Positions 283 to 18,581 of a stretch of DNA of 18,581 nucleotides are shown here, one piece after another. Under the pieces are notes generated by a model that worked only from the letters and a program-made list of their open reading frames with translations, made no database searches and had not been told where the DNA came from. Origin of the DNA: a virus; IMG/VR virus record IMGVR_UViG_3300045988_116509; one strand, 5' to 3'. Position numbers and translations under genes: made by a program. Numbering within the stretch: position 1 is the first letter of the stretch; every line of letters begins with the position of its first letter.

Positions 283-720
283 ATGGTGTTTGAGGTGACT
301 GGTCTTTCAGTTAGATTCGACACTAGTGTGGATGATGGTATTGAGGTTATTACTTTGTACTATCGTGTTGATGGTCGTTTGTGTGGTTGTAGGTGTTTTA
401 CTGAAACGTATGATTCTTGTTCTGGCGTGACTTGTTCTGCTTTGTTGAATATGATGCGGTTTGTTTATCGTCTTAGGGGGGTGAAGATGTCGGAGCCTGG
501 TAGTATTATGGATGTTTGTATGCAATTGTATGCTCAGTGGTCTGAGCGGGGCGCTCATATTGCTGCTGTTAGGGGGTTTGAGCGTGGTGTGTTGGACGCC
601 GCGGAGGGTAGGTCCGAATGCGAAACGCTGCCCTGTGATATTCATAGGATGTATGAGGATGATTATTGTCGTGGATATCGTGAGGGGTATTGTCATGGTA
701 ATGAGCAACCGGAATTTTAA
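283..720 (+). CDS. Early protein of unknown function, Cys-rich (145 aa)
   Basis: ATG at 283 with AAGGA 10 nt upstream. Third codon positions are strongly T-biased, and the alternative frames look like composition noise. I recognise no domain. Confidence 0.7.
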   Translation: MVFEVTGLSVRFDTSVDDGIEVITLYYRVDGRLCGCRCFTETYDSCSGVTCSALLNMMRFVYRLRGVKMSEPGSIMDVCMQLYAQWSERGAHIAAVRGFERGVLDAAEGRSECETLPCDIHRMYEDDYCRGYREGYCHGNEQPEF

Positions 721-3350: not shown

Positions 3351-4811
3351 ATGAAAGAGCGTCGAATGGCGGCAACGGACGGCGCAACATTATTGACGGA
3401 TGACGGTGTGGAACCGTTGGGGACCTCTGCCGTCATCCGTCTTACCATGCTCGATTGTCATACGCGCGTATGGTGTGCCCACGGATGGCAAGATATCAAG
3501 CCCCTGGCCACCGAACTGTTGAATCGCCTTCCATTGCAACCGAACCCCAGTAAGGACGGCGTGTGGGGGACGTTTAACATTCGTGGCCACTTCTACAGTT
3601 TTCGGGTGCGCATGGGCGGTGTCACCGTGGATTTCTTGGACGTGCGCAATATCACGCGCGATGACGGGCTGAACGTTTCCCGTGAGACGTTTGGCGGTGC
3701 GAATGACTTGGAAACCACGTGGAACATCGTACAGGAGTGTGCCGCACTGAATCTCACGGGCGTCACGATAGCGTCCATGGCGATGACCGATTATATCGGC
3801 GGGGATTACGCCGGGTTCAAACGCCGGTTTCCGCCATTGGATAAGAAGGATTATCGCCGGATGCGTCCCGCCTACTATGGGGCGATAGTACGCAGCAAGC
3901 CGGGCGAATACGGGGATTGTAGGAGCTGGGATGTGAACAGTCTGTATCCGAGCATCATGCACGATATGCCCATGCCGGTAGGTACTCCCGTATGGTATGA
4001 CGGGGAATATCGGGATGATGATGATTATCCACTGCATATCGATGTCGTCGCGTTTGACGCAACGCTGAGGAAGGGGAAGACGGCGACGCTCACCAATATT
4101 CTGCCTGTATGGGGGTATGAGGGCGAACGCTTGGACAGTACGCTCGGCGTCGTCACCATGCCGGTCACGGATGTGGATTGGCAGACGCTTGTGGAAAACT
4201 ATGACGTCCACGTGTGGGAGCATGTCGGCGGCTGGAAATTCCGCAAGTCATACGCCCTTTATCGTGAGTATGTGGACAAGTGGTTTCATGTGAAGCAGAC
4301 CGCGACCGGGGAACGGCGGCAGATGGCGAAACTATTGTTGAATTCACTGGTGGGGAAGTTTGGGGCGTCGCTGTACCGGCCCATGCTGCATCCGAAGCCG
4401 TCCATGGATGGTGGAGTGGATTTTACCGTGGAACAACCCGAGTCGGCCAGCTCTCTCGCATGGCTGCCGACTGCCGCCTATGTCAACGCCTACGGTCGGC
4501 GAATACTGTCTCGTGCGATGAACGCGAACGCCGAACGTGTGCTCTACGCCGACACGGACGGCATGATATTGGAGGGGTTGGATGGGCCCATTGGCATTGA
4601 AACGGATGATAGGAAACTGGGCGCATGGAAGAATGACCACTCTTATGAGAAACTTCGTATTCTCGGCAATCGTAAATATTGCGGCGTAGAGGAAGATGGC
4701 GGCACGGTGATGCGGTTGAGTGGCGTGCATCGTGCCTCCCCCATTCCTTATGACCGGTTTCTGCCGGGGTCTCGCCATCGTAATGACGGTGGCCATACTT
4801 TCGTGCTATAA
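3351..4811 (+). CDS. Protein-primed family-B DNA polymerase, phi29 gp2-like (486 aa)
   Basis: Motif A is DVNSLYPSIM, motif B is KLLLNSLVGKFG and motif C is LYADTDGM. The phi29-like strings YPLHI, DKWFHVKQT and KLGAWK are also present. RBS is AAGGA, 7 nt upstream. Confidence 0.95.
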   Translation: MKERRMAATDGATLLTDDGVEPLGTSAVIRLTMLDCHTRVWCAHGWQDIKPLATELLNRLPLQPNPSKDGVWGTFNIRGHFYSFRVRMGGVTVDFLDVRNITRDDGLNVSRETFGGANDLETTWNIVQECAALNLTGVTIASMAMTDYIGGDYAGFKRRFPPLDKKDYRRMRPAYYGAIVRSKPGEYGDCRSWDVNSLYPSIMHDMPMPVGTPVWYDGEYRDDDDYPLHIDVVAFDATLRKGKTATLTNILPVWGYEGERLDSTLGVVTMPVTDVDWQTLVENYDVHVWEHVGGWKFRKSYALYREYVDKWFHVKQTATGERRQMAKLLLNSLVGKFGASLYRPMLHPKPSMDGGVDFTVEQPESASSLAWLPTAAYVNAYGRRILSRAMNANAERVLYADTDGMILEGLDGPIGIETDDRKLGAWKNDHSYEKLRILGNRKYCGVEEDGGTVMRLSGVHRASPIPYDRFLPGSRHRNDGGHTFVL

Positions 4812-16585: not shown

Positions 16586-16957
16586 ATGACGGAAACCTTA
16601 TTTTACGAAACACTGGCCATACTCGTGTTCATCATCATGGACTACGTTACCGGCGTTATCAACGCCGTAATGCACGGCAAACTTTCCAGCACGAAAATGC
16701 GGGAGGGACTCGGCAATAAATTCGCCTACCTTTGCGTATTCTTCATCGCATGGTTCATCGACTTCGAAATGGAACACATAGACATCGGATTCCATAGCGC
16801 ATTGACACCGCTAGTTACCGTAGGTATTGTTTTCATTGAGCTGTCCAGCATCATCGAAAATATCGGCAAAATCAATCCCAAACTCAAAAACGCCCCATTC
16901 ATGAACATCTTCTCCCAAAACGACAATCAGCCAAACCACAAGGAGGACCGACCTTGA
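16586..16957 (+). CDS. Holin (Phage_holin_4_1 / LL-H-type pattern)
   Basis: Three hydrophobic segments. The characteristic strings are DYVTGVINAV...SS..MREGLGNK and IELSSIIENIGKINP. RBS is GAGGAA, and the endolysin gene follows directly. Confidence 0.85.
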   Translation: MTETLFYETLAILVFIIMDYVTGVINAVMHGKLSSTKMREGLGNKFAYLCVFFIAWFIDFEMEHIDIGFHSALTPLVTVGIVFIELSSIIENIGKINPKLKNAPFMNIFSQNDNQPNHKEDRP

Positions 16958-17823
16958 ACGATATCACATGGATAGGCTCACCCAACCACTACAACGGCCG
17001 TAACGGCCTCACCATCACCCACATCACACTCCACATCATGGTCGGCCACCTCACCGGCACCGACAGCGTATTCCAACACCCCAGCGGAGCCTCAGCACAC
17101 TACGGAATCGGCGCAAACGGTGCCATCCATCAATACGTCAACGAAAACGACGGCAGCTGGAGCGACGCAAACTATACGAGCAACAACAGCACCATCAGCA
17201 TCGAACACGAAGGCGGCATGAACGGCATCCCATGCACCCAAGCATGCATGGACGCATCAGCCAAACTCTGCGCCGACATCGCCCGACGACAAGGATGGAC
17301 ACACCTCTGGCATGACGGACTCAACGGCAACATCTGGCTCCACCGCGAAATACCCGGCACCGACCATTACGGCTGCCCCGACCTAGCACCAAACGGACTT
17401 GACGTAAACTACGTCATCAACAAAGCAAACCAAATACTAGAAGGAGACGACATGTCAGCAGAAGACGTGTGGAATTTCGACCAAAACGGTGTAAAAATGC
17501 GCGACCGCATGCAAGGCACCGACACAGCAGCCAACGCCACCAAAACCGAACTCTTCCGCCTCTCAAAATGGGACAACAAAACCCACGCATCCCCACTAGG
17601 CAACCTCATCATCGAACAGCCAATCCAAGGAGGAGCCAAACTCGGCGACCGAGTAGCCGGCATCGACAACAAAACCAGCCAACTCATCACACAAGTAGCC
17701 GCACTCACCGCAGCCGTAAAAGCCCTCTCCGAAAGCATGGGCGCCAACCCCGACACCATCGCACAAACCGTGCAAAACGCCGTAAAAGCCAAACTAGACT
17801 CGCTCACCATCACAGTGGAATAA
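16954..17823 (+). CDS. Endolysin: N-acetylmuramoyl-L-alanine amidase (Amidase_2/PGRP fold) with a non-canonical C-terminal domain
   Basis: TTG start 6 nt after AAGGAGGA, overlapping the holin stop as TTGA. The amidase pattern is HIMVGH...SAHYGIGANGAIHQYVNENDGSW...ISIEHEG...HREIPGTDHYGCP. Confidence 0.88.
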   Translation: MNDITWIGSPNHYNGRNGLTITHITLHIMVGHLTGTDSVFQHPSGASAHYGIGANGAIHQYVNENDGSWSDANYTSNNSTISIEHEGGMNGIPCTQACMDASAKLCADIARRQGWTHLWHDGLNGNIWLHREIPGTDHYGCPDLAPNGLDVNYVINKANQILEGDDMSAEDVWNFDQNGVKMRDRMQGTDTAANATKTELFRLSKWDNKTHASPLGNLIIEQPIQGGAKLGDRVAGIDNKTSQLITQVAALTAAVKALSESMGANPDTIAQTVQNAVKAKLDSLTITVE

Positions 17824-17834
17824 CACCACAACAT

Positions 17835-17868
17835 AAAGAAAAGCCCCGCAGATTGCGGGGCTTTTTTT
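17835..17868. terminator. Bidirectional rho-independent terminator
   Basis: AGCCCCGCA-GAT-TGCGGGGCT forms a 9-bp GC-rich stem. It is flanked by an A-run (17835-17842) and a T-run (17862-17868). It lies between the + strand endolysin stop and the - strand ORF stop. Confidence 0.8.
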
Positions 17869-17900
17869 ATCAAGCAATAAAACCATCCAACAAAACAGTC

Positions 17901-18105
17901 TCAATACTCGCAAGCACCCAACATTTCCTCAAAAATATCACGCGGAAACGCGCAACACGAACCAATACCATTAGCCTCCATAAAATCAGCCATCTCCTCA
18001 ACCACCTCTGCAACACCATAATCACAATCATCCAAATCAGACTTGTCCAAATAATCATAAACATAATCCCAAACAGCATCCCTATCAACACTATGACCAA
18101 AACAT
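17901..18105 (-). CDS. Small, very acidic right-end early protein (about 67 aa) transcribed leftward; reading frame interrupted just after its SD-linked ATG
   Basis: The minus-strand frame from 18104 to 17901 reads ...GHSVDRDAVWDYVYDYLDKSDLDDCDYGVAEVVEEMADFMEANGIGSCCAFPRDIFEEMLGACEY*. Its NNT codon bias matches the left-end genes, and the rare A residues fall at codon position 2. AAGGAAAGGA plus ATG (18105-18103) lies one base out of frame, across a T4 run. This ORF is absent from the track because no long ATG, GTG or TTG-initiated version exists. Confidence 0.45.
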
Positions 18106-18183
18106 CAACAATCCTTTCCTTGAAGTTCGCAACAACAGTACACTATACAACAAACAATACAACCAAAACACGACACGCCGAAA

Positions 18184-18542
18184 CGGCAAAAAAACGATAA
18201 AAAAAACCACGCGACCAAACCGCAGAATAAAACAGCAAAAAAACCAGCAACGAAAAAGACAAGAACAAAACCGAAAACAACAAAACAGAGAAACAAAAAC
18301 AAAACAAAGACAGCCACGAAAAACAAATAACAGAGCGCAACAGCAAAACACACAACAGAGCAGCGGCAAAAAAACGATAAAAAAACCACGCGACCAAACT
18401 GCAGAATAAAACAGCAAAAAAACCAGCAACAAAAAAGACAAGAACAAAACCGAAAACAACAAAACAGAGAAACAAAAACAAAACAAAGACAGCCACGAAA
18501 AACAAATAACAGAGCGCAACAGCAAAACACACAACAGAGCAG
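18184..18542. repeat. Tandem direct duplication of the ITR unit, present only at the right end
   Basis: The inner copy is 18184-18363 (180 bp) and the outer copy is 18364-18542 (179 bp). They differ by two substitutions and one extra A in a homopolymer. The left end carries a single copy (40-218). Confidence 0.9.
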
Positions 18543-18581
18543 CTATGGAAAAAGGATTGCTGCTGGGACCCCTCCCCTCCT
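18362..18581. repeat. Right inverted terminal repeat
   Basis: Exact reverse complement of 1-220. The window ends precisely at the repeat, as expected for a full-length linear genome. Confidence 0.95.

Follow-up and report, generated by a model that had tools for sequence, protein, structure and literature searches.

The first gene by the genome end is the classic position of an anti-restriction gene, and the very acidic small proteins T7 Ocr (gp0.3) and ArdA, of ~116 and ~166 aa respectively, were among the known mimics compared with the locus described here. Further comparisons were made with phi29. Its p56 is a UDG inhibitor and DNA mimic (PMC2018632, PMC3239192, PMC3711442), described in one structural report as a dimer of β-strands and one helix (PMC3239192). 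UDG inhibitors are structurally diverse (PMC3794593). The right early operon of phi29, genes 17 to 16.5, is transcribed early and leftward from the right end (PMC11476376).

In Bifidobacterium phages, two proteins deposited as ‘hypothetical protein’, BD811P2 gp01 (YP_010756014) and BD811P3_00001 (WAX06332), were found to be true homologues of the protein described here. BD811P3_00001 corresponds to P0035 in the homologue search (E 3.3e-12), and BD811P2 gp01 was seen by eye to differ from P0031 (E 3.3e-17) at 3 of 61 positions. Both resemble the protein described here in size, in acidity (net −14) and as first gene inward from the genome end. They differ from it in lying at the left end, co-directional with the replication genes, where the window gene faces left from the right end. 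They share only ~31–40% identity with it, and the BD811 frames are intact.

The stretch of DNA analysed (the window, 18,581 nt) represents all or nearly all of a linear genome bounded by inverted terminal repeats (ITRs) of 244 nt. All large genes are rightward, a phi29-type DNA polymerase among them, and the contig of a close relative carries a phi29-type packaging ATPase, holin and amidase with the right-end arrangement of the window. Among GenBank phages, nucleotide similarity was found only to the Bifidobacterium dentium podophages BD811P1, BD811P2 and BD811P3; the phage biology of this host genus is barely explored. The nearest record found was an IMG/VR contig of 18,499 nt, also with ITRs (G001), at 95.9% identity over 18.1 kb. 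Identity falls to 73% across the acidic gene at the right end, which marks it as part of a mosaic, fast-evolving module.

The leftward gene and its signals

The acidic frame was read on the minus strand at 17901–18104. It is open from just after a TGA at 18107–18105 to the TGA at 17903–17901, comprises 67 sense codons plus the stop, and translates as CFGHSVDRDAVWDYVYDYLDKSDLDDCDYGVAEVVEEMADFMEANGIGSCCAFPRDIFEEMLGACEY. Aspartate and glutamate total 18 against 3 lysine and arginine in 67 aa (net charge −15), and third codon positions are T 42, G 19, C 3 and A 2, so that 61 of 66 are T or G. The first canonical in-frame start is a TTG at 18050–18048, giving a 49-aa product that is present in a public protein collection as P0008. 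Searched with the family profile, the window yielded this single copy. Its remaining long minus-strand ORFs are antisense shadows of rightward genes, and none is credible as another leftward gene.

The Shine-Dalgarno (SD) sequence AAGGAAAGGA at 18121–18112 is followed by the 6-base spacer TTGTTG and by an ATG at 18105–18103. This ATG opens a 4-codon ORF (ATG TTT TGG TCA TAG, 18105–18091) whose frame stops at the TAG at 18093–18091; the acidic frame lies one base over, across a run of four T (18102–18099). If TTTT is read as a single codon, the product begins MFGHSVDRD..., as the preliminary description had predicted for removal of one T, and this matches the N-terminus of the nearest homologues (MFGNS.../MMFGNS...). 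Direct reading of the minus strand likewise bore out its account of a highly acidic right-end frame as the only leftward gene, with an SD-linked ATG out of frame by +1, 67 codons to the TGA, the same excess of acidic residues and a T-biased third position (T in 42 of 66).

The SD is kept as AAGGAAAGGA or AAGGAAGGA in L012, L014, G001 and BD811P2. About 30 nt upstream of it, relatives (L012, G001, L016, L009 and BD811P2) carry TGTGGTATACT or TGTGGTATGAT, which resemble an extended −10 element. From consensus and conservation we infer that the corresponding region of the window (18147–18137) is the −10 region of a promoter for the leftward gene. It contains TATAGT at 18147–18142 and, at 18142–18137, TGTACT aligned with TATACT of the relatives, with three substitutions relative to them. 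Where relatives have TGTGGTATACT the window reads TATAGTGTACT; the A in second place of the aligned hexamer is lost, and TATAGT has arisen ~5 nt further upstream.

Downstream, a bidirectional intrinsic terminator is predicted at 17868–17835, shared with the convergent endolysin gene (16954–17823, plus strand). The hairpin AAAAGCCCCGCAATCTGCGGGGCTTTT at 17865–17839 has 12 pairs, 7 of them G-C. It is matched on both strands, below threshold, by Rfam models of terminator-containing leaders, and an equivalent hairpin occupies the same place in relatives, in agreement with the convergent terminator proposed at the outset. The suggested mirror of the phi29 right early operon stood in part. As in phi29, a predicted gene runs leftward from the right end and converges on the late/lysis genes at a terminator; yet the window has a single tiny gene there and G001 two small ORFs, and no homology to p17 or p16.7 was detected with Pfam or PHROGs.

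The acidic frame is a real, conserved gene. It is open in all ten relatives for which DNA was available, whereas the other two frames are not. When searched with a family profile built from alignment A3, the window's own sequence included, the window frame (17904–18104) scored 115.9 bits (E 1.5e-35, profile positions 2–65). The contrary reading, a chance open frame in T/G-rich, A-poor DNA where stops are rare, can point to the +1 frame, which in the window is also open across the whole stretch as a 76-aa ORF starting with TTG, a sign that long ORFs can arise from composition alone. This hydrophobic ORF (17870–18100) was rejected as a composition artefact because five of nine relatives interrupt its frame; the third frame has 12–16 stops. 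In addition, the acidic protein is 31–40% identical to left-end and prophage copies of different composition and its fold is predicted at a pLDDT of 88–93. With the frame open in every relative, distant homologues and a confident fold, a chance origin is effectively refuted.

The extra T in the second codon

Three contigs with the nearest homologues (L012, L013 and L014) read GGATTG ATG ATG TTT GGT, where the window reads GGATTG TTG ATG TTTT GGT. The homologues continue with AAT AGT (M(M)FGNS... or MMFGSG...) and the window with CAT AGT. Alignment requires exactly one gap column, unique to the window, and no counterpart of the extra T exists among ten aligned homologues; the window has also lost the earlier of the tandem ATGs (ATG to TTG). 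The mini-ORF ATG-TTT-TGG-TCA-TAG occurs in no relative, where the same ATG opens the acidic protein. As written, therefore, the window copy is a frameshift allele, the frame from its SD-linked ATG being interrupted by the extra T.

Three explanations had been offered for the offset ATG: a homopolymer error, a +1 slip of tRNA-Phe, or initiation at an internal codon. The accompanying check on homologues was run and speaks against programmed frameshifting. All homologues have a clean in-frame ATG. A plain single-base insertion is favoured; a programmed slip, which is not conserved, and the internal start are not. We consider a non-programmed insertion, real or artefactual, highly probable, and all programmed or alternative forms of expression, taken together, unlikely. 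The apparent recoding puzzle thus reduces to one inserted base in one copy of a conserved gene.

In a programmed frameshift, tRNA-Phe would slip on AUG-UUU-U-GG so that the SD-linked AUG yields MFGHSVDRD.... The P-site UUU_U (18102–18099) would re-pair perfectly in +1, the 0 frame is over after four codons, and the N-terminus of the product would match that of the homologues exactly. The slippery P-site codon able to re-pair in +1 recalls prfB (RF2), where the SD lies ~3 nt upstream of it. Here 9 nt separate the end of the SD from UUU, and the A site is occupied by UGG, which is not a stop and not known as a hungry codon. The site is also unconserved, being absent from all ten aligned homologues, with ATG TTT GGT in the nearest three, and a second frameshift allele (L023, below) has a different context (UAU UUU GGA UGA) with no shared signal. 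As read from the sequence, recoding signals are absent at the T4 run, and we regard programmed slippage as extremely improbable.

Internal initiation would give a functional 49-aa protein from TTG 18050, possibly through a promoter-like TTGATA-17-TATGTT at 18088–18060. The TTG is the first in-frame start, its product is reported by gene callers, the sigma-70-like match lies just upstream, and leaderless translation is common in Actinobacteria. Against this, UUG is a poor leaderless start and no SD lies within 15 nt upstream. The promoter-like match is no better than expected from shuffles (1 found, mean 0.7), and the 49-aa product would be without conserved helix 1 (residues 8–21) of the three-helix bundle. 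BD811P3_00001 is also 49 aa long, but it starts at base 39 of its record and its homologue P0030 has 16 more N-terminal residues; it thus looks like a truncation at the record end and not a natural short form. An internal start is accordingly very unlikely.

The insertion may be a genuine, recent, non-programmed mutation in the DNA, a reading to which we give an even chance and towards which we lean, or an error of sequencing or assembly. In the latter case the true sequence is ATG TTT GGT, the 67-aa protein is made normally and the fourth T is a consensus artefact. We hold this to be quite possible, at somewhat under even chance. It would account for the in-frame ATG of all homologues and for a downstream frame that is fully intact, scores like any member and shows no excess of private change. 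Protein-linked genome ends are often poorly covered by sequencing, an odd 179-nt tandem duplication lies in the same terminal region, and at the other end a further homopolymer difference, GGGG to GGGGGG at 475–480, also changes a frame.

The distribution of indels argues the other way. Between the window and G001, six small indels were counted in 696 nt of non-coding DNA and one frame-changing indel in 16,878 nt of coding DNA; a 4+2-nt pair in the endolysin gene is net in-frame. Indels thus avoid coding DNA, as if filtered by selection, unlike random base-call or homopolymer noise, and no other frame-breaking indel was found in 16.9 kb of coding sequence against this 96% relative. An expansion from three to four bases is short for platform-typical errors, and the neighbouring ATG-to-TTG and −10 substitutions are not of an error type; changes in both the −10 element and the first ATG were counted toward a genuine mutation.

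Two further alleles in the family were counted toward a genuine mutation. In L023 (ENA ERZ28638088, 1–240) TTT has become TTTT, so that TAT TTG GAT reads TATTTTGGATGA; in L024 (Logan SRR23087443, 150–350) a G is gained (TGGGAT to TGGGGGT). Each insertion splits the gene and leaves the downstream frame intact, and the two come from independent, unrelated metagenomes. They sit on short metagenome contigs (697 and 1224 nt), where errors are plausible too.

The polymerase may be relevant. In its N-terminus (window 3351–3830) the ExoI DxE-like motif reads D-C-H (TMLDCHTRVW) and the ExoII NxxFD-like motif N-I-R-G-H, and phmmer aligned the polymerase domain alone to the phi29 DNA polymerase. The ExoI and ExoII carboxylates appear to be replaced and the proofreading site inactive; a raised slippage rate from their loss would fit a genuine mutation. 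In the window gene, 2 private substitutions were counted in the protein and 15 in the DNA, both inside the span seen among its relatives. With no excess of such changes, the mutation, if real, must be very recent. No near-identical copy spanning the T run was found in metagenome_contigs or viral_contigs, nor among GenBank phages by blastn or tblastn.

If the mutation is genuine, an extra T entered the second codon (ATG TTT GGT to ATG TTTT GGT) outside any programmed mechanism. Ribosomes recruited by the SD would make Met-Phe-Trp-Ser alone, and the acidic protein would be absent or at trace level. In that case the phage would have lost an accessory, presumably dispensable, early gene by natural mutation, and it could serve as a natural knock-out for comparison with relatives carrying intact alleles. 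Intact members of the family may act early by inhibition or mimicry, binding a host nucleic-acid-binding protein in anti-defence or host take-over.

With L023 and L024, homopolymer frameshift alleles amount to three independent cases among ~27 family clusters, all with intact downstream frames. Such recurrence, in phages whose polymerase appears to have lost its proofreading carboxylates, could mean that a costly counter-defence gene is switched on and off within populations, in analogy to phase variation; low-level +1 slippage on UUU_U might then give leaky expression in the ‘off’ state. We consider a switch of this kind improbable.

An acidic three-helix family and its candidate function

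The gene belongs to a new, previously unnamed family of extremely acidic three-helix proteins confined to Bifidobacterium phages. Word-indexed searches gave ~27 uncharacterised proteins of 61–70 aa (10 close, 17 more distant). When 1.84 billion cluster representatives were searched exhaustively with the profile, only 13 proteins reached E<=0.001, from which the family is judged small and narrowly distributed. Members were found only in Bifidobacterium phi29-like podophages and in the early regions of two Bifidobacterium prophages. The window protein is 85% identical to P0006 and 82% to P0007. Estimates of dN/dS were 0.27–0.49 at distance and ~1 among the closest relatives, values distorted by saturated T/G third positions.

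All but two podophage members (−7 and −10) have a net charge of −14 to −18 per ~65 aa. T/G mutational bias was considered as the source of the acidity and rejected: left-end genes of equal bias are only mildly acidic (−2 to −7 per 100 aa), and prophage members of normal composition are still acidic (−7 to −12).

AlphaFold2 predicted three helices for the window protein (residues 8–21, 31–45 and 55–64; pLDDT 88.1, pTM 0.72) and the same three for a distant left-end member (pLDDT 92.8). Residues D7, R8, D9, Y14, V15, D17 and L19, in or near helix 1 (8–21), are invariant or nearly so.

In phages, the family gene is the first gene inward from the genome end. The window copy is ~480 nt in from the right end, with the ITR and its tandem duplicate on the outer side; in the relatives L012–L018, G001 and L009 the gene lies 33–340 nt from the contig end and points inward. 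In the window lineage the acidic gene is followed by the hairpin and then by the convergent endolysin and holin genes, and in the BD811 lineage (L020; BD811P2 gp01) its homologue opens the left end, ahead of the genes for SSB, terminal protein and polymerase. Two distant members lie in Bifidobacterium chromosomes. The one inspected (L019) is among small genes downstream of HTH regulators in an integrase-bearing prophage, and its neighbours gave no functional clue.

Searches of Pfam, PHROGs and NCBIfam gave nothing significant for the acidic protein. The sequence profile found nothing below E 0.9 among all PDB chains, a set of all entries in which the deposited structures of p56 (PMC3239192, PMC3711442) should be present. 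Foldseek searches of the PDB with the two high-confidence models gave best E values of 2.4–3.2 and TM scores below 0.6, within the limited sensitivity of the method for small folds. Weak matches to Stl and TetR-like helices in these searches were rejected. In BFVD the best match was an unnamed 182-aa viral protein (E 0.066).

The preliminary description had linked the protein to p56 and UDG inhibition. Like p56, the family protein is small and acidic and comes from a protein-primed podophage, p56 being an early protein of 56 aa. The analogy is conceptually attractive for a phage with single-stranded replication intermediates and genome ends that look deamination-biased. The comparison did not support the link: neither with the profiles nor with the two models was any resemblance to p56, Ugi, SAUGI, Ocr or ArdA seen. 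Where p56 is an obligate, β-rich dimer with anti-parallel strands and a helix, the family is predicted to be all-α with three helices and has no sequence or Foldseek match to it. Ugi and SAUGI have an α/β fold that places a β-strand in the UDG cleft, which again contrasts with the all-α model and its lack of Foldseek hits. The UDG idea is weakened by this modelled difference in fold and by the presence of members in integrase-bearing prophages, to which the rationale for a UDG inhibitor in protein-primed replication does not obviously apply. Given the structural diversity of UDG inhibitors, a protein of another fold could still act as one.

For the broader proposal, a possible role as DNA mimic or anti-defence protein, the high negative charge (net −15) was observed, and no sequence or fold match to known mimics was found. 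The family protein shares with Ocr and ArdA its high acidity, small size and place as first gene by the genome end; it is much smaller than either and has no PDB fold or sequence similarity to them. First-gene position, small size, acidity and rapid mosaic evolution would suit a protein that acts early against a nucleic-acid-binding protein of the host, whether as an anti-restriction protein or as another DNA or RNA mimic. We propose this function tentatively, as one possibility. Extremely acidic, confined to Bifidobacterium phages and always first from a genome end, the family may reasonably be considered a candidate for inhibition of host factors or of host defence.

Variation at the genome ends

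Base composition is heavily skewed at both genome ends, in mirror image. In the window, a 179-nt ITR unit is tandemly duplicated (94% identity) at the right end alone (18189–18546); the left end carries it once. At the left end, GGGGGG at 475–480 (GGGG in G001) fuses gene 1 (GTG 295) in frame with the next gene (ATG 486) into an ORF of 283/295–720.

The inverted repeat at the right end of G001 (L003, 1920–2021) matches the left end of the window out to ~387 (window 295–387). Within this match lie a leader with an SD (aaggatggtg) and codons 1–31 of left-end gene 1, so that G001 has a leftward ORF of 33 aa ahead of its acidic gene. In L017 the left-end leader is joined straight to the acidic gene. 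From these two arrangements the genome ends appear to swap cassettes.

BD811P2 gp21 (L002, 17460–17777) and its counterpart in L001 (17343–17606) are unrelated to the family and represent another very acidic, leftward right-end gene. In BD811P3 the copy of this gene is cut by the record end, and the BD811 records appear to be without terminal repeats. Homology of the family to gp21 was rejected (hhalign probability 0.2%), only the leader and SD being common to both. The leader, AACTTCAAGGAAGGATTG, stands ahead of gp21 in the BD811 phages and is also present in the window. Unrelated right-end genes behind a common leader suggest that the ends exchange gene cassettes behind a conserved expression signal.

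One family sequence from a representative library, P0018 (94 aa), looks A-to-G hypermutated throughout (D to G, E to G, Y to C, N to D, M to V, and the stop TGA to TGG). The pattern fits a strong, strand-specific, deamination-type pressure that may act on the 5′-terminal strand at these genome ends.
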